Assembly: GCF_003703475.1 (NCBI RefSeq)
Contig: NZ_RDQM01000001.1
Span: 147,044 to 211,043 of the forward strand
DNA length: 64,000 nucleotides
From: Allofranklinella schreckenbergeri
Lineage (GTDB): Bacteria; Pseudomonadota; Gammaproteobacteria; Burkholderiales; Burkholderiaceae_C
Direction: 5' to 3'
This document shows positions 28,790 to 38,659 of the stretch, in pieces. A program made the translations under genes and the position numbers. The notes below the pieces were generated by a model. It saw only the letters and a program-made list of their open reading frames with translations. It did no database searches and had not been told where the DNA came from. The stretch's first letter is position 1; the number at the start of each line of letters is the position of its first letter.

Positions 28790-30469
28790 TCAAGACTCGT
28801 GACGTTGAAAGCCCTCTTGCAGCGCCGCCCAGCTCAGCCCAAAGCGGGCCAGGTATTTGCGCAGGCGGTCGCTGTCGTTGGCGGTGCTGCGCCGGGTGCG
28901 CGAGTGGTTGAAGAGCTGGCGGCCGGCGTCGGCCAGGCTGGCGCTGCGCTGGCACAGGGCGATAACGGCGCGCAGTTGCAGGCGGTCGAACAGGTCCAGC
29001 GCGGCCAGCCGTTCGGGCCCGAGCAGGGCGTTCAGGCGTGCGTCCAGCGCATCTTCGCCGCTGCCGTGGTTGGTGGCAGTGCTATCGGCGTCATTGCCAG
29101 CGGGCGCAGCGCCGACCCCGGCCTTGCCGTGCCACAGCCATTCGAGGCGGGCGATTTCGGCTTCGACCAGGGCGCTGCCGATGCGGCCGCCTTCGGCCAG
29201 AGTGGCCAGGCGGGTGATGCTGGCGGCCAGGTCGCGGAAGTTGCCGCGCCAGGGCGCCCTGGACGATTGGGCAAAGGCGAGATAGCGCGCCCGCGCCTCG
29301 CTGCTCAAGCGCGCCAGGCGGCCGTCTTCGCTGGCGTGGCGCGCGAGCAGGTGGTCGATGTTGGGCTCGATGTCCTCGGGCCGCTCGGCCAGGCCGGGCA
29401 GGTGGTAGGTCCAGAGGTTGATGCGCGCGAACAAGTCTTCGCGAAAACGCCCGGCGGCTACCTCGGCGCGCAGGTCGCGGTGGGTGCCAGCGATGAGCTG
29501 GAAGTCGCTTTCCACTTCCTGGTCGCTGCCCATCGGGTAGAAGCGTTTTTCTTCCACGGCCTTGAGCAGCATGGCCTGCTCGTCCAGGCCCAGCTCGCCG
29601 ATTTCGTCGAGAAACAGCACCCCGCCATTGGCGCTGCGCAGCAGCCCGGCGCGGTCGGCGGCGGCGCCGGTGAAGGCGCCTTTTTTGTGGCCGAACAGGG
29701 TGGAGGCGGCGCCATCGCCGCGCAGGGTGGCGCAGTTGACTTCGACAAAGGCGCCTTGCACCTGGTGGCGGGCTTTTTTCAGCTCGTACATGCGCCGCGC
29801 CAGATGCGATTTGCCCGCGCCAGTGGGGCCAGCCAGCAGGATGGGCGCGCGCGAGCGCACCGCCACGCGCTCGATTTCGTCGATCAGCGCATTGAAGCGC
29901 GCATTGCGCGTGGCAATGCCGCTTTTGAGGTGCGTGCGCGCCTCGTGCCGGGCCTGACGAAAGCGCTGGGCCAGGGCGTCGTAGCGCGAAAGATCCAGGT
30001 CGATCAGGGTGAAGCTGCCGGGCAGCTGGCCGTTTTGCCGCCGGGGCGGGCTGGTTTGCAGCAGCACGCCGGGGATGAAGCGCGCCTCCACCAGCAGGAA
30101 CAGGCAGATCTGCGCCACGTGGGTGCCGGTGGTGATGTGTACTCGGTAGTCTTCGCGCGCGCTGTCGAAGGGGTAGCTGCGCGCCCAGTCGTACAGGCCG
30201 GCATAGACCTCGCCGAAGTCCCAGGGGTCGCTCACCTCCATCGGGACGAGCTTGACCTGGGTCGCGGGCGACAGCTCGGCAATGTCGGCCAGCACGCGGT
30301 CGGCCAGGCGCTGATAGCGGCTGGCGTAGAACAACTCCAGACGGTCCACCGGCCAGGCCGTTTGCTGCACCAGCGACACCGTGGGCCGCCATTTCTCCCA
30401 CCGGCCCCGGCCGCCGCCTGCATCAAGCTGTGTGCCTAGGTAGCCGATGACGACGTTTTTCTTGCGCAT
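28790..30469 (-). CDS. rtcR: Sigma-54-dependent transcriptional activator RtcR (N-terminal CARF-like sensor domain, AAA+ domain, C-terminal HTH)
   Basis: Collinear with E. coli RtcR over the full length (MRKKNVVIGYLGTQLDAGGGRGRWEKWRPT.., GPTGAGKSHLARR, GAFTGA, ESDFQLIAGT, C-terminal DRLRKYLARFGL). Divergent from a sigma-54 promoter. Confidence 0.9.
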   Translation of the reverse strand: MRKKNVVIGYLGTQLDAGGGRGRWEKWRPTVSLVQQTAWPVDRLELFYASRYQRLADRVLADIAELSPATQVKLVPMEVSDPWDFGEVYAGLYDWARSYPFDSAREDYRVHITTGTHVAQICLFLLVEARFIPGVLLQTSPPRRQNGQLPGSFTLIDLDLSRYDALAQRFRQARHEARTHLKSGIATRNARFNALIDEIERVAVRSRAPILLAGPTGAGKSHLARRMYELKKARHQVQGAFVEVNCATLRGDGAASTLFGHKKGAFTGAAADRAGLLRSANGGVLFLDEIGELGLDEQAMLLKAVEEKRFYPMGSDQEVESDFQLIAGTHRDLRAEVAAGRFREDLFARINLWTYHLPGLAERPEDIEPNIDHLLARHASEDGRLARLSSEARARYLAFAQSSRAPWRGNFRDLAASITRLATLAEGGRIGSALVEAEIARLEWLWHGKAGVGAAPAGNDADSTATNHGSGEDALDARLNALLGPERLAALDLFDRLQLRAVIALCQRSASLADAGRQLFNHSRTRRSTANDSDRLRKYLARFGLSWAALQEGFQRHES

Positions 30470-30591
30470 ATCGAATCTAGATTAAAAGATAGAAATGATG
30501 AATTGATTCGCCAATATTCTATTTTCAGCCATGCAGCCCATCACCCTTGCGCCCTTTCCCGCTTCGGGTCATAAAAATAATTTCTCTTTCA

Positions 30592-30604
30592 AATCAATGG
30601 GTTG
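30592..30604 (+). promoter_or_regulatory. Candidate IHF site (AATCAAtgggTTG) between the rtcR upstream region and the sigma-54 promoter
   Basis: Fits WATCAA-N4-TTR. An AT-rich bend region about 30 bp upstream of -24 is typical of sigma-54 promoters. Confidence 0.4.
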
Positions 30605-30633
30605 AAGATGATTTGCACCCGTTTGGGGCGACC

Positions 30634-30649
30634 TGGCACGGCCTTTGCA
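30634..30649 (+). promoter_or_regulatory. Sigma-54 (-24/-12) promoter TGGCACG-N4-TTGCA, divergent from rtcR
   Basis: Near-perfect match to the TGGCACG-N4-TTGCW consensus, oriented rightward. Predicted TSS near 30660, directly upstream of the tRNA-like elements. Confidence 0.75.
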
Positions 30650-30805
30650 ATTCACCAGAGCGTCAGGCGTATGCACCAGTCGCTCGCAGGCCAGGGTTGG
30701 GGCCAAAGGCCCGCCCTGCCGGTGCCGGTGGCCGCCCGCTGAGGCTGATGAGGCCGACATGGGCGTTGCGCATCCGGTATGCCGCGCGGCGTAGGCGTCT
30801 GACAC

Positions 30806-30861
30806 GGCATGGGCCGTTTGGGGCCACCTTCGTGTCCGGTTCGACTCCGGGCATGCCTCCA
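30806..30861 (+). ncRNA. tRNA-like mini-element: 6-bp acceptor-like stem (GGCATG../..CATGCC), 24-nt connector, perfect T-arm (CCGG-TTCGACT-CCGG), discriminator and CCA; no D or anticodon arms (candidate Y-RNA-like / YrlA-like module)
   Basis: Read directly from the sequence, about 150 nt downstream of the sigma-54 TSS. Too short to be a tRNA. Confidence 0.5.
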
Positions 30862-30932
30862 CTGGTAGCTCAGTTGGATAGAGCAACGTGCTGATAACAC
30901 GTGTGTCGCGGGTTCGACTCCCGCCCATCCTT
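30859..30932 (+). ncRNA. Pseudo-tRNA (tRNA-Ile-GAU-like) with intact D-arm, anticodon arm, variable loop and T-arm (GCGGG-TTCGACT-CCCGC) but a non-pairing acceptor stem and no CCA
   Basis: TAGCTCAGTTGGATAGAGC D-arm, ACGTG-CTGATAA-CACGT anticodon arm, and GGTTCGACTCC T-arm all found. The 5' CCACTGG cannot pair with the 3' CCATCCT, so the element cannot be aminoacylated. Confidence 0.55.
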
Positions 30933-31426
30933 CCCCAGCTGCAAGGCTGGCTACAAGTGAAACGGTCGCAAGACCACCCGCCGAACCGTGGCGGGCCGGG
31001 CAGAGCAGGGCCTTTGGGCCTTGAGCTGCACCGGCCAGCCACACGCCCTGGCGGCTTTGCGCTGGCGGCGTCCGGTTACGTGCTTACACGCAACCGGGCG
31101 CAGGCCGCGGGGCCGCGGCGGCATGGCCAGCCGGGCCGGATGCGCGTGTTTTGTCGCGCCATCCCACCCCGGCCCGCCATGCCCCGCGCCCGCGCCACGC
31201 CAGCCCGTCGCCAGAGCCTGCTCAGCGTCTCGGAGCGAGTGGGCAAGAAGCGGTTTGGGATGGGCTGCAAGGCGCAAAACGCAGCCGGGCCGGTTGGCCC
31301 GGCGAGGCTTTGCAACGCAGCAGATCGCCCAAATCCGCTTCATGGCCCGCCGTGCAGAGACGTTGAACAGGCTCTCGGGCGAGGTTCGGCACCCTTTGAC
31401 GTTGTTGTTGCGAGAGAGAAGAAAAC

Positions 31427-32573
31427 CATGAAAACCTACGGCTACAAAACCTTCCAGGTGAACAAAAACGAGCGCGGCCTGTTGCTGCGCGGCGGCGACT
31501 TCGCGCGCGTGCTGGGCCCCGGCAAGCACCGCATCTGGGCCTTGGGCGAGGCGCTGCAGGTGCAGCGCTTCGGGCAGGACGCGCCAGCCTTCACCCACCC
31601 GCTGGCCGACTACCTGATGGCGCACGAGCCCGAGGTGCTGGCCCAGCACTTCGTGCGCGCCGAGCTGGGCGAATCGGAAGTGGGCTTGCGCTACGAGGAC
31701 GGCCTGCTGGCCGAAGTGCTGCCTCCCGGCACCCGCCGCCTGTACTGGAAGCACCTGCACGAAGTGCGCGTGGAGGTGCTGCCACTGCCGGCTGACGCCC
31801 GCATCGCGCCCGAGCTGGCCGCGCGCCTGCAACAAATGGCCGAGCGCCGCGGCCCGGCCAGCCTGGCCGGCGGCGTGCTGCTGACGCAGGTGCCGCAGTT
31901 CCACACCGGCCTGCTGTGGCTGGACGGTCAGTTGCAGGCCGCGCTGGCGCCCGGCGTGCACGGCTTCTGGCGCTTTGGCCGCAGCCTGGCGGTGGAGGTG
32001 GTGGACCTGCGCGCCCAAACCGCCGAGGTCGCCGGGCAAGACATCCTCACCCGCGACAAAGTCGGCCTGCGCCTGAACCTGGCCGCCGTGTGGCGCTATG
32101 CCGACGTGCAGGCCGCCTTCGCACAACTGCCCAAGCCGGCCGAGCACGTTTACCGCGAGCTGCAATTCGCGCTGCGCGCCGCCGTCGGCCAGCGCACGCT
32201 CGATGTCCTGCTGGACGACAAGGCCGCCATCGACAGCGCCGTGCTGCAAGCCGTGCGCGCCAAGCTCGCCGACTGCGGCATCGCGCTGGAGAGCGTGGGC
32301 GTCAAAGACATCATCCTGCCCGGTGAGATGCGCAGCATCCTGGCGCAAGTGGTCGAGGCCGAAAAGGCCGCCCAGGCCAACGTCATCCGCCGCCGCGAGG
32401 AAACGGCGGCCACCCGCTCCCTGCTCAACACCGCCAAGGTCATGGAAGACAACCCCGTGGCCCTGCGCATGAAAGAGCTGGAAACCCTGGAGCGCGTGGC
32501 CGAGCGCATCGACAAGATCTCCGTCGTGGGCGGGCTGGATCAGGTCTTGAACGGGCTGGTCAAGCTGCGTTGA
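31427..32573 (+). CDS. Cytoplasmic SPFH/band-7 domain protein (stomatin/prohibitin-like C-terminal half, about 190-aa N-terminal extension, no TM helix)
   Basis: RBS agagaag-N6-ATG. The C-terminal half has SPFH features (ILTRDKVGLRLNLAAVWRY..IALESVGVKDIILPGEMRSILAQVVEAEKAAQANVIRRREETAATRSLL). The track ORF 30888..32573 is a 5' over-extension. Confidence 0.75.
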
Positions 32574-32851
32574 AGGGAGGTTGAACGTTGAACGTTCGGC
32601 GTTCAACCTGCCCCGACAGTTTTTTTGACACACAAAGGATTTCAGGGCGCGCTGGCACAGAAGGGAGCGCCACTGCCAAAAATGTTTGTGAACAACCGGC
32701 AGTCCGGGTAACACCGGGTGCGGCAGGCAAGTTGGTTGGCGAGCAAGGTTGAGGATGCAGGTGCTGGCTCCGATGACGGGTCTGTCACTGGCGCGCGTTT
32801 CCAATCGCCGACTGGGCCAGTGGATTCGAACACCCTGGTTGCTGCACTGAT

Positions 32852-32879
32852 GCGGGTTCGAATCCCGTCGCGTCCACCA
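32852..32879 (+). ncRNA. tRNA 3'-end fragment (T-arm GCGGG-TTCGAAT-CCCGT, acceptor 3' strand CGCGTCC, discriminator A, CCA); no matching 5' half
   Basis: A perfect T-loop plus CCA end, but no complementary acceptor 5' strand. A second inverted T-loop-like piece (TGGATTCGAACACC) lies at 32821..32834. Confidence 0.45.
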
Positions 32880-32912: not shown

Positions 32913-33683
32913 ATGAAAAGCGCACGTAAACCCAAGCGTACCACAGCGCCAGACTGGACGCCACAGGCCATGGGTCTGGCAGAAGACAAATACCAGGCAG
33001 CCTTGCGCTACCTGTTCGACCGACCTGTGCCTGCCCGGCATGGGCAAGAGTGGTACTGGAACTGGGATGGAACGGAGGCCCCGTTCGACGCCACCCCGCT
33101 GGAGTGGACGCGCATCCAGACGGTGCTGTTTGCCAACGCGGGGCGCGACTTGGCGCCCTACAGCGACGAGCAAGTCGGCATGGGCCTGCACCATGTCATG
33201 AGCAACGATGCGGGCGATATTCCACTGGCCGCCATCGACCCCAGCGTACCGCTGGCCGAAGCCATGCGCATGATGCAGGCCTTCCCCAGGCTCTGGCAGG
33301 ACTGCATCGGCCCGCGCCTGGCGCATGCGCGCACCGCCATCGGCCATGAGCCAGGGCGGCTGGGCTTTGTCTGCTACATGTGGTTCGACGTCTGGCCCAC
33401 TTTCTACCTTGCCAGGCAGCGGTTCGAGAACCTGTCCGCGGTCTCGGCGCGAGAGGGCAAGGTATGGCGCGATGCGATGTGGCACGTGCTCTCGGCCATG
33501 CTGGACATGCCTTGCCGCGCCGTGCAAATCGCCGCCTTGCATGGACTGGGGCATGAGGGAGAGCATCTGCAACGCGAGCGGGAAATCCATGCGCGCATCG
33601 ACGGCTTCATTCAATCACTGCGCGGCCAGGACCAGGAACTGGCCGACTACGCCCGCGCCGCCCGGTGTGGGCAAGTGCTGTGA
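32913..33683 (+). CDS. Hypothetical protein (no recognisable domain)
   Basis: 256-aa ORF in the same orientation as the sigma-54 transcript. Codon usage consistent with the genome. Weak RBS. Confidence 0.4.
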   Translation: MKSARKPKRTTAPDWTPQAMGLAEDKYQAALRYLFDRPVPARHGQEWYWNWDGTEAPFDATPLEWTRIQTVLFANAGRDLAPYSDEQVGMGLHHVMSNDAGDIPLAAIDPSVPLAEAMRMMQAFPRLWQDCIGPRLAHARTAIGHEPGRLGFVCYMWFDVWPTFYLARQRFENLSAVSAREGKVWRDAMWHVLSAMLDMPCRAVQIAALHGLGHEGEHLQREREIHARIDGFIQSLRGQDQELADYARAARCGQVL

Positions 33684-33786: not shown

Positions 33787-34086
33787 TCAGGGCGCTTCGC
33801 GCGCCAGCACCGCAGCGGCCCGGGTTTGCCAGCCCTTGCCGGAGGCGCGCCAGCGCGCCAGCGCGTCGGGATCGAGCCGCAGCGTGACGGGCGTTTTGTG
33901 CACGGCCGCCACGCTGCCGACCGGGCGGCCTGCCTTGCGGCGCGCGGCAATGGCCTCGGGCGTGTGCACGGCGGCGGCCTCGCCGCGCGCGGCCTGGGCC
34001 AGCCCGCGCTCCAGCGAAGCCAGCAAGGCGGCGGTGTCGGCGTCCATGCCTTCTTCAATGGCAGGGGAGGTCGGTGTTTTAGACAT
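33787..34086 (-). CDS. Type II antitoxin, BrnA/DUF4415-like (RHH-type)
   Basis: C-terminal motif RLDPDALARWRASGKGWQTRAAAVL matches the GKGYQTRIN signature of BrnA-type antitoxins. Overlaps the upstream toxin gene by 8 nt. Start taken at MSKTPTSP. Confidence 0.6.
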   Translation of the reverse strand: MSKTPTSPAIEEGMDADTAALLASLERGLAQAARGEAAAVHTPEAIAARRKAGRPVGSVAAVHKTPVTLRLDPDALARWRASGKGWQTRAAAVLAREAP

Positions 34087-34405
34087 CGTATTTCTCCGCA
34101 AGGGCGCGCAGCAGGTGCGCGGGAATGTTTTCAATGCGGCCCTTGGTATAAGCCGTGATCAGCACCAGCTCGCCACGGGCATTGCGCACGTAGTAGATCA
34201 CGCGCGCGCCGCCGCGTTTGCCCTGCCCCTTGGCCGCCCAGCGCAGTTTGCGCAGGCCCTTGCTGTGCGGGATCAGATCGCCCGCATCGGGATGGCAGGA
34301 CAACCAGTCAATCAGCGCCCAACGGTCTTGTTCGCTCCAGATGCTGGCGGCGCTGACCTGGAATTCGGGGCTTTCAATGACGGTGAGCATAAATTGATTG
34401 TACAT
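34079..34405 (-). CDS. Type II toxin, RelE/ParE superfamily (HigB-like)
   Basis: 108 aa. Motif ..GGARVIYYVRNARGELVLITAYTKG is typical of RelE/HigB-fold toxins. The toxin precedes the antitoxin (higBA-like order). Confidence 0.65.
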   Translation of the reverse strand: MYNQFMLTVIESPEFQVSAASIWSEQDRWALIDWLSCHPDAGDLIPHSKGLRKLRWAAKGQGKRGGARVIYYVRNARGELVLITAYTKGRIENIPAHLLRALAEKYDV

Positions 34406-34556: not shown

Positions 34557-35399
34557 ATGAACGCCATGTCTTCCGCCTTGGCAGCTGCCATTGAGCACGC
34601 CTACCGTGTTTTCAGCGCCTGCCCGCCGCCTGCCGGGCTGCTGGACGTGTGCACGCGCTGCTGCGTCGATCCGGAGGTGGAACTGCAAATGCGTACCCTG
34701 CCGCTGCGGCAACTGGGGCGCGAGCATTTCTTTGACTACAACTTCTCGGCCAAGAGCGAGGTGCAGCCCGCAGCCGAAATCCGGTACCTGCTGCCGCGCA
34801 TGCTGGAGCTGATCGCCCAAGGGGTGGACATTCACCACTCGATAGAGCTTTACTTGGAACGGCTGGGCCGCTGTCCCAGAGGCAGCCTCAGCCCTACGCA
34901 ATGGCTGGCCGTGCAAGCCGTGGCACAGGCATTGTTTGCCGATTGCCTGGCCCGCTATCCGTGGGAGCGCGGCGGGCCTTGGAACGGTTGCACGCTGTTT
35001 GACGTGCTGCGCATGCTGCACATCGGCGGGCTTGACATCCAGCCCTTGCTGGATCTTTGGCTGCGCACCGCCACGCCCCAAGCCACGCTGCATTACGCCA
35101 ACGCGGCCTGGTTCGACTACTGGCTGGACGGGGGGCGCGTCAACAACGCTTTTGTTAAGGATCGGCCCGACTACATCACCTGCGTGGACAAATGGATGCG
35201 CCATGAAGCGCACCGCCTGATCTTCGCGCAACGATTGCTGGCGCTGGAGACGGCGCGCATCCCGCATTTCGATCAATGGAAATGCGGCTGTCGATTCACC
35301 CCCGCACAAGTCATCCAGAACTGCATCGACGCCATGCGCCTGGATGGGCCCGAAAGCGCCCGCCAACAGCGACCGAGCGATGAAAAAAGAAGACCATGA
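34557..35399 (+). CDS. Hypothetical protein, translationally coupled to rtcB (ATGA overlap)
   Basis: 280-aa ORF with no recognised domain. Cys-rich N-terminus (CPPPAGLLDVCTRCC). Its stop overlaps the rtcB start codon. Confidence 0.45.
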   Translation: MNAMSSALAAAIEHAYRVFSACPPPAGLLDVCTRCCVDPEVELQMRTLPLRQLGREHFFDYNFSAKSEVQPAAEIRYLLPRMLELIAQGVDIHHSIELYLERLGRCPRGSLSPTQWLAVQAVAQALFADCLARYPWERGGPWNGCTLFDVLRMLHIGGLDIQPLLDLWLRTATPQATLHYANAAWFDYWLDGGRVNNAFVKDRPDYITCVDKWMRHEAHRLIFAQRLLALETARIPHFDQWKCGCRFTPAQVIQNCIDAMRLDGPESARQQRPSDEKRRP

Positions 35400-36751
35400 A
35401 AAACCAAGAAAACCTGAACCCCGAAGCCATCCGGCAAGAGCGCCTCGCCCGCCGCCTGGCCTCCGCGCAATCGCGCCATGCGCCTGCTGAAGAAAAGCCG
35501 CAGCCCGAGATCGTGGAAATCCAGGGCGAACACGGCCAGCACCTGCAAATGCAGCAAGGCAGTGGCGCGCCCGTGAAGATGTGGACGCAAGGCGTGCCCG
35601 TGGAAGACGAAGCGCGCAAGCAGCTGCTCAACGTGGCCAGCCTGCCCATCGTGTTCAAGCACGTGGCGGTGATGCCCGATGTGCACTACGGCATTGGGGC
35701 AACCATCGGCTCGGTGGTGCCCACGCTCAAAGCCATCATCCCCGCCGCCGTGGGCGTGGACATCGGCTGCGGCATGATGGCCTGCAAGACCACGCTGACG
35801 GCCAGCGACCTGCCCGACAACCTCGCCCCTTTGCGCGCGGCCATCGAAAAAGCCGTGCCGCACGGCATGACGCCCAAAAAATACGGCCGCGACAAGGGCG
35901 GCTGGGAAACCCCGCCCGAGGAAATCGACGCCGCCTGGGCGCGGCTGGTGGATGAGTTCAACGCCATCTGCGACAAGCACCCGCGCATCCGCAGCACCAA
36001 CAACTACAAGCACCTGGGCACGCTGGGCGGCGGCAACCACTTCATCGAAATCTGCCTGGACGAGGCGCAAAGCGTGTGGATCATGCTGCACAGCGGCTCG
36101 CGCGGCGTGGGCAATGCCATCGGCACCCACTTCATCGAGCTGGCCAAGAAAGACGCCGAGCTGCACCAACGCAACCTGCCCGACGCCAATCTGGCCTACT
36201 TCGAGGAAGGCGCGCAGTACTTTGGCGACTACGTGCAGGCCGTGGGCTGGGCGCAAAAGTTTGCCTCCGCCAACCGCGAGGTGATGATGACGCGCGTCAT
36301 CCACGCGCTGCGCAACGTCATCGCCAAGCCCTTCGACACGCATGTGGAAGCGGTCAACTGCCACCACAACTACGTGCAGAAAGAAACGCACTTCGGGCAA
36401 GACGTGTTCGTCACCCGCAAGGGCGCGGTCAACGCCGAAAAGGGGCGGCTGGGCATCATCCCGGGGAGCATGGGCGCCAAAAGCTACATCGTGCGCGGCA
36501 AGGGCAACCCCGACAGCTTCAACAGCTGCAGCCACGGCGCAGGCCGCACCATGAGCCGCACCCAGGCCAAAAAGCAATTCACCGTGGCCGACCAGATCGC
36601 CGCCACCGAAGGCGTGGAATGCCGCAAGGACGAAGCCGTGATCGACGAAATCCCGATGGCCTACAAAGACATCGACGCCGTGATGGCCGCCCAGCGCGAC
36701 CTGGTGGATGTGGTGCACACGCTCAAGCAGGTGCTGTGCGTGAAGGGGTAA
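35396..36751 (+). CDS. rtcB: RNA 3'-phosphate/2',3'-cyclic phosphate ligase RtcB
   Basis: Full-length RtcB (GGGNHFIEI, SHGAGRTMSR, HNYV motifs). No rtcA downstream. Confidence 0.95.
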   Translation: MKNQENLNPEAIRQERLARRLASAQSRHAPAEEKPQPEIVEIQGEHGQHLQMQQGSGAPVKMWTQGVPVEDEARKQLLNVASLPIVFKHVAVMPDVHYGIGATIGSVVPTLKAIIPAAVGVDIGCGMMACKTTLTASDLPDNLAPLRAAIEKAVPHGMTPKKYGRDKGGWETPPEEIDAAWARLVDEFNAICDKHPRIRSTNNYKHLGTLGGGNHFIEICLDEAQSVWIMLHSGSRGVGNAIGTHFIELAKKDAELHQRNLPDANLAYFEEGAQYFGDYVQAVGWAQKFASANREVMMTRVIHALRNVIAKPFDTHVEAVNCHHNYVQKETHFGQDVFVTRKGAVNAEKGRLGIIPGSMGAKSYIVRGKGNPDSFNSCSHGAGRTMSRTQAKKQFTVADQIAATEGVECRKDEAVIDEIPMAYKDIDAVMAAQRDLVDVVHTLKQVLCVKG

Positions 36752-36948: not shown

Positions 36949-37461
36949 CTATAAGCCCAGCATCCTGGCAAGCCAGCCCTTCTGCGGCGCCTCAACGGCG
37001 GCGGGCGCAACCGCCACTGGCTCGGGCTGTGGGGCGGGCGCCAGCCCTTGCTTGATGAGCGCTTTGCGCTGGTAGGCCAGCACCGCCTCCACATAGCCGT
37101 GGTCTTCGTTGCGGATGTGGTTGAACAGCCAGCGCGAGAGCATGCCATGCAGCTCCTCGCTCACATCCTCGCCGCTGTCAAAGCGGCTTTGCATCTCGGC
37201 CACCCTGCGCGTGAACAGCTCGTGCACCTTTTTATGCGGGCCGCTGAAGACGTAGCCTGCCTCCTCGATCAGCGCCTCCTCAAAAGCGAAGTGGGAAATG
37301 GTGTAGTCCACCATCTCCGCAATCACTTCGCCCAGGCGCTGGCGATCGGGCGTTTGCCGCACCTCGTGCAGCATGTTGATGTATTCGACAATGCGCCGAT
37401 GCTGGCCGTCGATTTCGGCAATGCCGGTATCCATATCCGGCGTCCATTCAAGAGTACTCAT
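36949..37461 (-). CDS. Bacteriohemerythrin
   Basis: Hemerythrin HHE cation-binding motifs (IDGQHRRIVEYIN, H..FAFEE, HIRNED). Start refined to MSTLEWTPD; the longer ORF 36949..37821 is an over-extension. Confidence 0.8.
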   Translation of the reverse strand: MSTLEWTPDMDTGIAEIDGQHRRIVEYINMLHEVRQTPDRQRLGEVIAEMVDYTISHFAFEEALIEEAGYVFSGPHKKVHELFTRRVAEMQSRFDSGEDVSEELHGMLSRWLFNHIRNEDHGYVEAVLAYQRKALIKQGLAPAPQPEPVAVAPAAVEAPQKGWLARMLGL

Positions 37462-37633
37462 GACAATGCTGTGGTGAAAACAAAAAGCGCGCACACGCAC
37501 GCATCGGCATGCCACTTTGTGTCGCGGCGCGGATTTTCTTACATTTTTTTGACGTTCTTGCCAATGGCATACCTCGCTGCTCGGAGACTGCCAGCCAGCC
37601 ATCGTGCAGTTGTGGTATGGGATAGCCCCCATC

Positions 37634-38659
37634 ATGCTCAAGCTCACTTTTCTTGGCACATCCGCAGGCGTGCCCACACGCACGCGCAATGTCTCCGCCC
37701 TGGCCGTACATGTCCCCATGACCGGGCCAGGCTGGTACCTGGTCGATTGCGGCGAAGGCACGCAACAGCAATTGCAACGCGCCCATTTATCGCTGCACCA
37801 TCTGGCCGCCGTGTGCATCACCCACGTGCACGGCGACCATTGCTATGGCCTGCCTGGCCTGCTGGCCAGCGCCGGGCTGGGCCAGCGCCAGCGGCCCTTG
37901 CACCTGATTGCCCCGCCGCCCGTGTGGCAGTGGTTGCAGGCCACCCAGCAATGCACGGACTTGCATTTGCCCTATGCCCTGACCTTCACCGACATCGTCA
38001 CGCTGCGCGAGCAGCCCTTGCATCTGGCCGCCAGCGGGCCAACATCACTGCGCCTGAGCGCCCACCCGCAACGGCACCGCTCGCCCAGCCACGCCTTTCG
38101 TTTTGAACTGCAACAGCGCCAGGCCAAGCTCGACGCCGCCGCGCTGCACGCCATCGGCCTGCCCCCAGGCCCCGCGTGGCGCGCGTTGCAAAGCGGGCAG
38201 AGCGTGATGCACCAGGGCCGCCCGTTGCACAGCCACGATTTCGTGCACACCCACACGCGCCACCTGGCTGCCGTGCTGGGCGGCGACAACGCCCAGCCCG
38301 ATGTGCTGCGCAGCGCCTGCCAAGGTGCGCAACTGCTGGTGCATGAGGCCACCTACAGCCAGGCCGCGCTGCAAAAAGCCGGGCCAAACCCCATGCACAG
38401 CAGCGCGCACGCGGCTGCCAGCTTCGCCCAGTCGGCCAACCTGCCCAATCTCATCCTCACCCACTTCAGCCCACGTCACCACAGCCAGGCCGAGCAACGC
38501 CTGCTCATGCAAGAGGTACGCGCTGCCTACGGTGGCAACGCCTTTTTGGCACAAGACTTTGATCAGTTCACGCTGGATTTCGATGGCGGCCTGCACCGAC
38601 ACACCCTGCCGGCGCAACCGGGCACGCAGCCCACAAGCGCCTGCGCACAACCGCGATAG
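37634..38659 (+). CDS. rnz: Ribonuclease Z / RNase BN (metallo-beta-lactamase fold, tRNA 3'-processing endonuclease)
   Basis: MLKLTFLGTSAGVPTRTRNVSA N-terminus and HVHGDH zinc motif. About 340 aa, short-form RNase Z. Confidence 0.8.
   Translation: MLKLTFLGTSAGVPTRTRNVSALAVHVPMTGPGWYLVDCGEGTQQQLQRAHLSLHHLAAVCITHVHGDHCYGLPGLLASAGLGQRQRPLHLIAPPPVWQWLQATQQCTDLHLPYALTFTDIVTLREQPLHLAASGPTSLRLSAHPQRHRSPSHAFRFELQQRQAKLDAAALHAIGLPPGPAWRALQSGQSVMHQGRPLHSHDFVHTHTRHLAAVLGGDNAQPDVLRSACQGAQLLVHEATYSQAALQKAGPNPMHSSAHAAASFAQSANLPNLILTHFSPRHHSQAEQRLLMQEVRAAYGGNAFLAQDFDQFTLDFDGGLHRHTLPAQPGTQPTSACAQPR

Follow-up and report, generated by a model that had tools for sequence, protein, structure and literature searches.

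Conserved tandem tRNA mimics upstream of the Band-7 gene in an RtcB operon

We observed that two adjacent tRNA-like elements, which lie upstream of a Band-7/SPFH gene in the window (the whole 64,000-nucleotide stretch of DNA analysed here), are conserved, non-decoding tRNA mimics and not broken tRNA genes. Taken together, they probably make up the tRNA-like, non-coding part of an RNA-repair operon that encodes Band-7/SPFH and RtcB, and they fit a kind of RNA that was already predicted, b7a-tRNA, which would be the counterpart of YrlA in Band-7 operons. Read alongside its 69 relatives, the present locus shows how such RNAs are built: the D/anticodon/T core is preserved, the acceptor and the anticodon loop can be reduced, and a CCA-ended minihelix often precedes the tRNA core. 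The features of the locus are:

28790-30469, minus strand: rtcR, divergent sigma-54 activator gene with an RtcR/CARF N-terminal domain (Pfam RtcR 1.3e-78, Sigma54_activat 1.8e-50)
30634-30649, plus strand: sigma-54-type promoter motif TGGCACGGCCTTTGCA (TGGCAC-N5-TTGCA), putative promoter of the leader and operon
30687-30785, plus strand: upstream leader domain, two hairpins with near-invariant CCGGUGC and AUGCCGC
30806-30861, plus strand: element 1, acceptor/T-arm minihelix with a D-like hairpin and a U-CCA end
30862-30927, plus strand: element 2, cloverleaf with a 3-bp acceptor and the loop CUGAUAA
30935-30995, plus strand: downstream leader hairpins CCAGC-UGCAAG-GCUGG, GGUC-GCAA-GACC and CCCGCC-GAACCGU-GGCGGG
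31452-32573, plus strand: Band-7/SPFH (slipin) gene (Pfam Band_7 2e-30)
32645-32879, plus strand: E3, a third tRNA-related RNA in the operon, 235 nt, with a 7-bp acceptor formed from both ends and a T-arm at 32852-32868
35396-36751, plus strand: rtcB RNA ligase gene (Pfam RtcB 6.4e-130)

Element 1 is the top half of a tRNA only: its acceptor and T-arm form one coaxial helix, accompanied by a very small D-like hairpin, and a CCA is encoded. Its acceptor has 6 bp (G30806-G30811 with C30852-C30857), and in its T-arm (30835-30851) the strands U30835-G30839 and C30847-G30851 enclose the loop UUCGACU. U30858 is the discriminator, and CCA follows at 30859-30861. The earlier note had described this element as lacking both the D and the anticodon arms. 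The anticodon arm is indeed absent, but the 23 nt that separate the 5' acceptor strand from the T-arm hold a small hairpin, GGCC-GUUUGG-GGCC (30812-30825), with GG in its loop, like a miniature D-arm. GG was found within the first 16 nt of this insert in 62 of 67 orthologues. An acceptor of at least 6 contiguous bp was seen in 48 of 69 loci (12.2 in shuffles). Pairing in the acceptor reached 91%, each position showing several pair types, while slid controls gave 35-45%. T-arm 1 also covaries across loci, and NCCA is encoded at element 1 in about 35 of the 69. A rival fold in the window extends T-arm 1 to a 9-bp hairpin that competes with the element 1 acceptor. Since T-arm 1 has been lost in the three closest relatives, whose Band-7 is about 78-80% identical, and in one further locus (L220), element 1 is dispensable. 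In keeping an acceptor, T-arm, D-loop analogue and CCA with no anticodon arm, it resembles minihelices and the tRNA-like domain of tmRNA.

Element 2 is a cloverleaf whose 5' strand begins after a 1-nt spacer from the element 1 CCA. U8-A9 (30866-30867) are followed by the D-arm (30868-30884, GCUC-AGUUGGAUA-GAGC), the anticodon arm (30886-30902, ACGUG-CUGAUAA-CACGU), the variable loop GUGUC and the T-arm (30908-30924, GCGGG-UUCGACU-CCCGC). The full set of core nucleotides is retained (U8, A14, G18-G19, C48, the T-loop and the Levitt pair G15/C48), as the earlier note had stated, along with the T-loop of element 1. Across orthologues the D-stem GCUC/GAGC is invariant and the T-stem GCGGG/CCCGC near-invariant. 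The acceptor, which had been taken as unpaired, turned out to be a 3-bp helix of U30863-G30864-G30865 with C30925-C30926-A30927. This helix was found by Infernal (model pairs 5-7/64-66) and in the minimum-energy fold of 30862-30932 (71 nt), which is a cloverleaf with a 3-bp acceptor, and covariation between loci was seen for each of its three pairs. In other loci the acceptor is 3-7 bp long, and some relatives have the D/anticodon/T core alone, with the acceptor absent. Element 2 carries neither a discriminator nor a CCA.

All the sequence features previously listed for the two elements were present, and they exceed chance by tRNA score, repeat count and covariation. Element 2 (30863-30927) was matched by the Rfam tRNA model with 48.9 bits, above the cut-off of 29 and with an E-value of 2e-7 over the whole window; the match was local and covered model positions 5-66 only. 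The sequence GGTTCGANTCC occurs in 3 copies in the window, against 0.07 expected. ARAGORN called no tRNA or tmRNA anywhere in the window, and the Rfam YrlA match (see below) fell under its cut-off.

The likeness of element 2 to canonical tRNA (RF00005) thus lies in its passing the Rfam cut-off and keeping the core nucleotides; it differs in its 3-bp acceptor and in a non-conserved anticodon that is often swapped for a tetraloop. The anticodon loop has 7 nt in 36 of the 69 loci and is capped by GAAA, GCAA or UUCG in the others. The 7-nt loops, in about half of the orthologues, are tRNA-like and of the form YU-NNN-RA. ARAGORN assigned at least 12 different tRNA identities to the orthologues of element 2, and even among the three closest relatives the "anticodon" differs, with CAU, GAU and one different loop. 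With such scattered identities, and with tetraloops in about half, the name pseudo-tRNA-Ile(GAU) used in the earlier note has no meaning. Its statement that neither element is a functional tRNA holds: the acceptor is short and no anticodon is conserved. A functional decoding tRNA was rejected on the same grounds, there being no set of 7-bp acceptor, discriminator and CCA.

We further examined the conservation of the tandem unit. It was found upstream of Band-7, on the same strand, in 69 of 81 sources, with covariance-model scores of 68-108 bits, and blastn recovered the region 5' of Band-7 in 57 of 80 loci. The unit is held in place across Beta- and Gammaproteobacteria. Of the alignment cells 96.1% were paired, whereas shuffles gave 78.4% and slid controls 36-51%, and the covariation score was 0.489 versus 0.150. 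Each of the 5 pairs of the anticodon stem, and likewise each of the 5 acceptor pairs, showed compensatory changes. The covariance model (R1) is not specific to the family. As tight phage tRNA arrays reach 60-86 bits with it, the family assignment was based on context and non-tRNA features and not on the score. When viral contigs were scanned for the T-arm-to-D-arm junction, only tight phage tRNA arrays were recovered, with Band-7 in none of them and RtcB in three. Folding z-scores (-1.1 to 0) were no better than those of shuffles and were not used as evidence.

The surroundings of the unit are those of an RNA-repair operon, in the order rtcR, sigma-54 motif, leader, Band_7 and, further downstream, rtcB. 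The position of rtcR is kept in most orthologous Band-7 loci, and RtcB lies downstream of Band-7 in most of them. The Band-7 protein has 7219 homologues; gene callers on near-identical contigs place its start 24 nt earlier, giving 381 aa on one of these (L205). The ORFs between rtcR and rtcB encode Band_7, a BrnA antitoxin and two unassigned proteins (256 and 280 aa). A TGGCAC/T-N5-YYGCW motif was found 155-200 nt 5' of T-arm 1 in about 50 rtcR-bearing loci; strict patterns missed most loci, and a relaxed -12 element (YYGC) was used. We saw no sigma-70-like site and no plus-strand terminator in 30400-31500. These sequence features support the view that the RtcB operon is under RtcR/sigma-54 control, in agreement with the context proposed in the earlier note. 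No RNase Z gene was seen near Band-7 in the short flanks of 80 genome loci.

The RtcR/sigma-54-dependent leader is predicted to be about 790 nt long, and the mimics begin about 150 nt into it. They do not lie immediately downstream of the promoter, as had been suggested, since the roughly 150 nt between the motif and element 1 hold the conserved two-hairpin domain. RNAalifold on 27 loci gave 20 pairs in this domain, 14 of them with compensatory changes, and the domain had no match in Rfam. Downstream of the mimics, leader motifs are also common to orthologues, for example GGTCG(C/A)AAGACC followed by CCCGCCGAACG.

We also compared the elements with b7a-tRNA. This RNA was predicted by Burroughs and Aravind (2016) and is described in Wang et al. 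2018 (bioRxiv 10.1101/312249), whose description gives it as a strongly tRNA-like ncRNA adjoining Band-7 in an RtcB operon, proposed to be functionally redundant with YrlA and lacking experimental validation. Element 2 fits exactly that second-hand description, which is what it was compared with. The Band-7 gene (31452-32573) lies downstream on the same strand, rtcB (35396-36751) is in the operon, and the resemblance to tRNA is strong (48.9 bits, a covarying cloverleaf, and ARAGORN calls on orthologues). The difference is that the description has one tRNA-like RNA, whereas here a mini-tRNA and a cloverleaf stand in tandem among conserved leader domains. There is no b7a-tRNA family in Rfam, and our literature search on b7a-tRNA and on SPFH/RtcB tRNA-like or tmRNA-like RNAs found nothing beyond the Wang/Wolin preprint.

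For the transcription, processing, partners and function of the mimics, we infer the following scheme. RtcR is activated by tRNA fragments ending in a cyclic phosphate, and fragments of damaged tRNAs would lead to the mimics being made along with Band-7 and RtcB. Folded like tRNA, they would probably be handled by tRNA enzymes. RNase P may cut at the 5' end of element 1 (G30806), its 3' end may be trimmed to the encoded CCA (A30861), and TruB/TrmA would modify both T-loops, with pseudouridine 55 predicted. YrlA is modified by TruB and DusA, and in M. smegmatis it is cut by RNase P and has CCA added. The mimics would then be tRNA-shaped, undecodable ligands that are predicted to bind Band-7 or RtcB, most likely serving RtcB and the Band-7 oligomer as a scaffold or cofactor RNA, in the way that YrlA works with Rsr. 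An alternative or added role may be that of a decoy for tRNA-binding nucleases.

The elements might instead work purely in cis, their folds recruiting RNase P and tRNA-processing enzymes to the 5' UTR and so determining where the Band-7-rtcB mRNA begins, how stable it is or how it is translated, with no trans-acting RNA product. This would agree with their position, which is always on the coding strand within the 5' UTR and is not separated from Band-7 by a terminator, and with the conservation of the flanking leader domains. A minimal RNase P substrate consists of an acceptor/T helix and NCCA, and element 1 has this shape (an 11-12-bp acceptor/T helix with NCCA). However, the best RNase P substrate of the unit, element 1, is lost more often than any other part. 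In element 2 all nucleotides that make tertiary contacts in the tRNA core are retained, which is beyond the needs of a processing signal, and free-standing Y RNAs occupy the equivalent place in Rsr-type sister operons. We therefore consider a purely cis-acting leader unlikely.

A decoy or feedback sensor would make the mimics substrates or competitive inhibitors of the tRNA nuclease that triggers RtcR, their 2',3'-cyclic phosphate products acting in feedback on the CARF domain of RtcR until they are rejoined by RtcB. The activation of RtcR by cyclic-phosphate-ended fragments speaks for this, as do the tRNA-like YU-NNN-RA loops of about half of the orthologues, and a competitive-inhibitor role has been suggested in the literature for YrlA. 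However, the other half have stable tetraloops and the "anticodon" varies even among close relatives, so a decoy for a specific anticodon nuclease is not to be expected. YrlA fragments were also not detected in Salmonella (literature). On balance this explanation appears quite improbable.

The likeness to YrlA (RF02553) deserves separate mention, as the earlier note had proposed YrlA-like RNAs. Both stand in RNA-repair operons of the RtcR/sigma-54 type and mimic the elbow of tRNA, and the D-stem and T-stem sequences of element 2 are identical to the Rfam YrlA consensus. In a closely related Rsr-type operon (L238) the order is rtcR, rsr, three YrlA-like RNAs, E3 and rtcB, so that Rsr and the RNAs occupy the position where the leader and Band-7 sit here. 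The analogy thus stands, on the position in L238 and on the proposal in the literature, but membership of the family does not. The Rfam YrlA model matched 30804-30912 at 30.7 bits (cut-off 69, E=2.6e-4 in 1.4 kb), in comparison to 73.9 bits for the authentic YrlA of L238. YrlA itself has the permuted order T-arm, closed acceptor hairpin and D-arm, carries a Ro-binding stem and adjoins Rsr, whereas the tandem unit has the normal order and no Ro-binding stem or motif, and adjoins Band-7.

A true YrlA-type Y RNA could still be imagined as a permuted domain made from T-arm 1 and D-arm 2, with Rsr encoded elsewhere; the weak Rfam match and the identical D- and T-stems would fit it. The linker of 12-22 nt between these arms, however, has no hairpin in 68 of 69 loci, and the fold is therefore tandem and not permuted. 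Its mean folding energy was -0.55 kcal/mol, as against -0.89 in shuffles, with 1 of 69 loci at or below -3, and its two halves pair outward with covariation. The putative Rsr site GNCGAAN0-1G was absent 5' of T-arm 1 (no CGAA in 30660-30835), the nearest similar case being GCCGAACCG at 30980-30988, which is downstream and wrongly spaced. According to Chen et al. 2014, YrlA is encoded on the strand of the Rsr (Ro60/TROVE) gene and within about 4 kb of it. Among the ORFs between rtcR and rtcB there was no Rsr, the interval having too little space for a protein of about 500 aa. Together, the score, the missing Rsr and the unpermuted fold refute this reading as one of family membership, and we regard it as very improbable.

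That the elements are what is left of two ordinary tRNA genes of a tight array, now functionless and decaying, is hardly credible: RtcR-less relatives do carry arrays of 5-13 real tRNA genes just upstream, and tight arrays score well with model R1 (an origin of the unit from such an array is plausible), but the covariation contradicts decay, with the same place kept across Beta- and Gammaproteobacteria, compensatory changes in every variable stem, invariant core nucleotides, and the short acceptor, tetraloops and near-zero spacing themselves conserved. In particular, no orthologue has an ordinary tRNA-Ile at this place, and the acceptor mismatch, which could have been recent decay from one, is a short acceptor under selection.

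We also evaluated E3. It has G3·U70, A73 and an encoded CCA, and sharp conservation borders. In its 31 full-length metagenomic copies G3·U70 was present without exception, and G3·U70, A73 and CCA are fixed while the neighbouring acceptor pairs covary. Of its 63 predicted pairs, 19 showed compensatory changes. E3 belongs to no Rfam family and is present in operons of the Rsr/YrlA type as well; an RNase Z-like gene lies 3' of rtcB in the E3-bearing loci of at least 6 metagenomic relatives. More strikingly than element 1, it keeps the acceptor, T-arm, D-loop analogue and CCA of tmRNA, and its G3·U70 and A73 are shared with tmRNA and tRNA-Ala. The tmRNA model (RF00023) matched its tRNA-like domain only, at 22.8 bits, below the cut-off of 47, and unlike tmRNA it has no conserved tag reading frame. 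A tag-peptide ORF was rejected, since the AUG frames in three homologues (31, 10 and 15 codons) were unrelated.

Tentatively, "b7a-tRNA" may possibly be a modular set of mimics across RtcB operons, made up of element 1, element 2 in its leader domains, and E3 as a candidate alanine-accepting RNA common to repair operons of the Band-7 and the Rsr/YrlA type. Should E3 and the tandem arrangement prove to be undescribed, they would connect RNA repair with aminoacylation or with chemistry like that of ribosome rescue, and E3, as a 235-nt G3·U70 RNA, may if new outrank the mimics as a lead. At E. coli slipin loci, reached by a plasmid search, we saw no RNA feature annotation; a related slipin locus is present in 30% of complete E. 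coli genomes, which offers a tractable host.

We observed that the two tRNA-like elements of the leader are tRNA mimics without decoding identity, arranged as a tandem that is conserved and covaries and is placed upstream of the Band-7 gene in an RtcR-type Band-7-rtcB operon. The operon and its leader have the following features.

Features of the operon and leader (window positions)
28790-30469, minus: rtcR (Pfam)
30634-30649, plus: sigma-54-type motif TGGCACGGCCTTTGCA (from sequence)
30687-30785, plus: upstream leader domain, two hairpins with near-invariant CCGGUGC and AUGCCGC
30806-30811 with 30852-30857, plus: element 1 acceptor, GGCAUG/CAUGCC
30835-30851, plus: element 1 T-arm, UCCGG-UUCGACU-CCGGG
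30858 and 30859-30861, plus: element 1 3' end, U followed by CCA
30935-30995, onward to 31450, plus: conserved downstream hairpins, GGUC-GCAA-GACC, then CCCGCC-GAACCGU-GGCGGG
31452-32573, plus: Band-7/SPFH slipin gene (Pfam)
32645-32879, plus: E3, a 235-nt tRNA-related RNA, between the Band-7 and 256-aa protein genes
32913-33683, plus: 256-aa protein gene, without Pfam or NCBIfam family
33787-34134 and 34079-34405, minus: BrnA antitoxin ORF (Pfam, 2.6e-13) and adjacent 108-aa ORF without assigned family
34557-35399, plus: 280-aa protein gene, without Pfam or NCBIfam family
35396-36751, plus: rtcB (Pfam)
36949-37821, minus: hemerythrin-domain ORF, after rtcB on the opposite strand
37604-38659: RNase Z-like metallo-beta-lactamase gene (Pfam)

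Scanned from the sigma-54-type motif to Band-7, the leader has neither a sigma-70-like site nor a plus-strand terminator, so both elements would be transcribed within a leader of about 790 nt. The earlier note had placed them immediately downstream of the promoter. About 150 nt intervene, including another conserved domain (30687-30785) between the sigma-54 start and element 1, in which 14 of the 20 predicted pairs are compensatory across 27 loci. This domain had no Rfam match, and apart from the generic tRNA model no entry in Rfam 15 represents any portion of the leader. From element 2 to Band-7 the distance is 520 nt, as against 233-440 nt (mostly 245-340) in orthologues. A CCCGCCG(R)NNG motif downstream of element 2 resembles the upstream CCCUGCCGGUGC. 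Inside the operon, the genes for the 256-aa and 280-aa proteins flank the BrnA and 108-aa ORFs, which run antisense and also occur on a 99%-identical contig (L205). Among relatives, the 256-aa and 280-aa proteins alternate between Band-7 and rtcB.

The sequence features reported earlier for both elements are present in the window, with some corrections. The insert of element 1 is not simply 24 nt lacking arms: 23 nt separate the 5' acceptor strand from the T-arm, and they contain a small hairpin, GGCC-GUUUGG-GGCC, with GG in its loop. After one spacer nucleotide, element 2 has U8-A9, a D-arm (GCUC-AGUUGGAUA-GAGC), an anticodon arm (ACGUG-CUGAUAA-CACGU), the variable loop GUGUC and a T-arm (GCGGG-UUCGACU-CCCGC). 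Its acceptor, described as unpaired, does pair (U30863-G30865 with C30925-A30927). The Rfam tRNA model, proposed as a check, did match 30863-30927 (48.9 bits against a cut-off of 29; E=2e-7 for all 64 kb of the window), but only over model positions 5-66, and ARAGORN, also proposed, called no tRNA in the window. Three copies of the T-loop motif GGTTCGANTCC are present in the window, where 0.07 would be expected. Single-sequence folding energies of the elements were no better than those of shuffles.

The window's Band-7 protein has thousands of relatives. An alignment-based scan gave 80 genome loci in Beta- and Gammaproteobacteria. Most have the order rtcR, about 700 nt, Band-7, variable small genes, rtcB. 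With 30800-30940 as query, blastn matched 57 of the 80 at the same place, beginning at the T-arm of element 1, and nearly all carry, upstream of Band-7, a pair of T-arms spaced by 68-79 nt. A covariance model built from this T-arm, the linker and element 2 gave scores of 68-108 bits to the unit, which it detected in 69 of 81 sources. A scan of viral contigs yielded only tight phage tRNA arrays; since these score 60-86 bits with the same model, family assignment rests on context and on conserved non-tRNA features. One further motif, TGGCAC-N5-YYGCW, lies 155-200 nt upstream of the first T-arm in about 50 rtcR-carrying loci.

In Burkholderiales lacking RtcR (L003-L007, L010, L028, L038 and others), rtcR is replaced by an array of 5-13 ordinary tRNA genes ahead of the leader-Band-7-rtcB module and on its strand; L038 has an HNH-motif ORF ahead of the module as well. 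In Anabaena, one repressor is common to a tRNA operon, rtcB and a slipin gene (PMC10272220). In Acidovorax benzenivorans (L012), rtcR is directly followed by an RNase P RNA gene (205 bits; 1277-1616, minus); the window lacks this gene, and the arrangement is possibly a coincidence. An E. coli accessory locus between yjbD and lysC (1632 of 5426 complete genomes; L206/L207) combines a sigma-54 motif and a reduced, single-T-arm leader (about 3674-3990 in L206) with genes for a slipin and an RlaP nucleotidyltransferase; a zeta toxin is encoded on the other strand, and the annotation of the locus includes no RNA feature.

In the 69-sequence alignment of element 2, standard pairs fill 96.1% of cells, against 78.4% in shuffles and 36-51% with partners slid, and the covariation score is 0.489 against 0.150. 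Both-sided changes occur in all five anticodon-stem and all five acceptor pairs, while the D-stem GCUC/GAGC, A14, G18 and the T-loop are invariant. The acceptor has 3 bp in 12 loci (the window's clade), 4 in 23, 5 in 15, 6 in 7 and 7 in 6; one further clade keeps only the D/anticodon/T core, and element 2 of L220 has no acceptor. The anticodon-position loop is 7 nt in 36 of the 69 loci and a GAAA, GCAA or UUCG tetraloop in the remainder. The window's CUGAUAA is CUCAUAA, UUGAUAA and a different loop in its three nearest relatives. Orthologues did not carry the ordinary tRNA-Ile that would make the window's copy a recently decayed gene. Their ARAGORN identities are Thr, Ile, Phe, Glu, Asn, Met, Val, Leu, Lys, Ser, Arg, Tyr or undefined. 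The conserved core, together with the variable loop and acceptor, shows that selection acts on the tRNA core and not on decoding identity or the acceptor end. The short acceptor is UGG(A) with (U)CCA in most Betaproteobacterial loci, so that its 3' strand looks like an NCCA tail set directly on the T-stem; Pseudomonas and Burkholderia have UUCGA/UCGAA instead. The CCA of element 1 ends 1 nt before this UGG in many loci (window 30859-30865, 30925-30927).

For element 1, the 7 nt 3' of the T-arm can pair without interruption over 6 bp or more with an upstream stretch in 48 of 69 loci; shuffles give 12.2. In clade-consistent registers 91% of the helix is paired, and sliding the strands lowers this to 35-45%. 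Each position has several Watson-Crick pair types, and there is a clean compensatory change between the window (GGCAUG/CAUGCC) and Acidovorax (GGCACG/CGUGCC). The smallest size class (43-47 nt) consists of an acceptor, a T-arm and a single hairpin of 3-4 bp whose loop contains UGG; the 50-61-nt class (window 54) adds a second hairpin, often GNRA-capped; the 68-75-nt class, in Pseudomonas and a few others, is a full cloverleaf. NCCA is encoded 3' of the acceptor in about 35 of the 69. The T-arm is lost, leaving a plain hairpin, in the three nearest relatives (L201, L203, L001) and in L220; element 1 is dispensable, and the mimics show graded reduction among these four. The minimal RNase P substrate is an acceptor/T helix with NCCA, a form that element 1 has.

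Judged by these comparisons, both elements are real, conserved and functional-looking. The mimics would be co-induced with the repair proteins and handled by tRNA enzymes, and by analogy with YrlA-Rsr they may serve Band-7 and RtcB as a scaffold or cofactor with the shape of a tRNA. YrlA modification depends on TruB and DusA, and the M. smegmatis YrlA, with a 7-bp acceptor, is cut by RNase P and receives CCA (Chen et al. 2014). One rival to a cofactor or scaffold is a signal for processing or stability that works purely in cis. A role as decoy for a nuclease, or as feedback ligand of RtcR, would accord with the activation of RtcR by tRNA fragments and with the suggestion of YrlA as a possible inhibitor of the nuclease (Hughes et al. 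2020), but is weakened by the tetraloops and variable "anticodons".

The earlier note had likened the elements to YrlA, and the Rfam YrlA model does give 30.7 bits (cut-off 69), because the first T-arm followed by the D-arm of element 2 is the YrlA order and the stem sequences equal the YrlA consensus. YrlA has a permuted fold, whereas the tandem lacks a hairpin between these arms: the 12-22-nt segment averages -0.55 kcal/mol against -0.89 in shuffles, reaches -3 in 1 of 69 loci, and its halves pair outward with covariation. There is also no GNCGAAN0-1G motif upstream of the first T-arm and no Rsr gene nearby, the scan between rtcR and rtcB giving no ORF big enough. True YrlA is thus rejected, and the tandem is instead the counterpart of YrlA. 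Dead tRNA genes are ruled out by the covariation of the stems.

According to Wang et al. (bioRxiv 10.1101/312249), Burroughs and Aravind (2016) predicted that RtcB in some bacteria adjoins a Band-7 protein and an ncRNA, b7a-tRNA. This RNA, so far unvalidated, "strongly resembles an authentic tRNA" and seems to be interchangeable with YrlA. Element 2 fits this second-hand description, by which the elements would belong to an already predicted class. The value of the locus lies in the detailed anatomy of the mimics and in the extra RNA nearby, E3. A sister operon in the metagenomic locus L238 (8353-10661; RtcR 69% and RtcB 82% identical to the window's) contains rtcR, a 517-aa ORF whose sequence reads as Rsr, three YrlA-like RNAs (73.9, 31.5 and 29.9 bits), E3, rtcB and an RNase Z-like gene. 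From L238, Rsr with Y RNAs and the leader with Band-7 appear to be alternative cassettes.

The third GGTTCGANTCC match led to E3. Its ends pair as a 7-bp acceptor (GGGCGCG/CGCGUCC, with G3·U70), followed by A73 and an encoded CCA, and it has a T-arm and a D-like hairpin. E3 has no Rfam family, and our literature search found no paper on it; the only Rfam match is local, to the tmRNA tRNA-like domain and below cut-off (22.8 bits against 47, E=1.7e-7 in 371 nt), and its homologues share no conserved tag ORF. Conservation borders coincide exactly with the E3 ends, and E3 is 88-92% identical in L013 and L025, whose Band-7 proteins are only 62-64% identical. By nhmmer it is in only 4 of the 80 genome loci; a 20-mer scan found it in 40 metagenomic loci, with full-length copies in 31. 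Copies lie upstream of rtcB or of small genes before rtcB, and, on contigs long enough to include these genes, after Band-7 or Rsr; E3 thus occurs in Band-7-type and Rsr/YrlA-type operons alike. The acceptor GGGCACG/CGUGUCC is found in 22 copies and in one more whose discriminator is U, and the other 8 have GGGCGCG/CGCGUCC, so pair 5-68 is compensatory; G3·U70 is retained in 31 of 31. Diverged homologues in L056 and L057 show further compensatory changes, and RNAalifold predicted 63 pairs, 19 with such changes. The RNase Z-like gene did not turn up in the 80 genome loci, which have short flanks. It lies 3' of rtcB in at least six E3-bearing loci (L209, L224, L227, L229, L238, L240), where the proteins are 57-66% identical.
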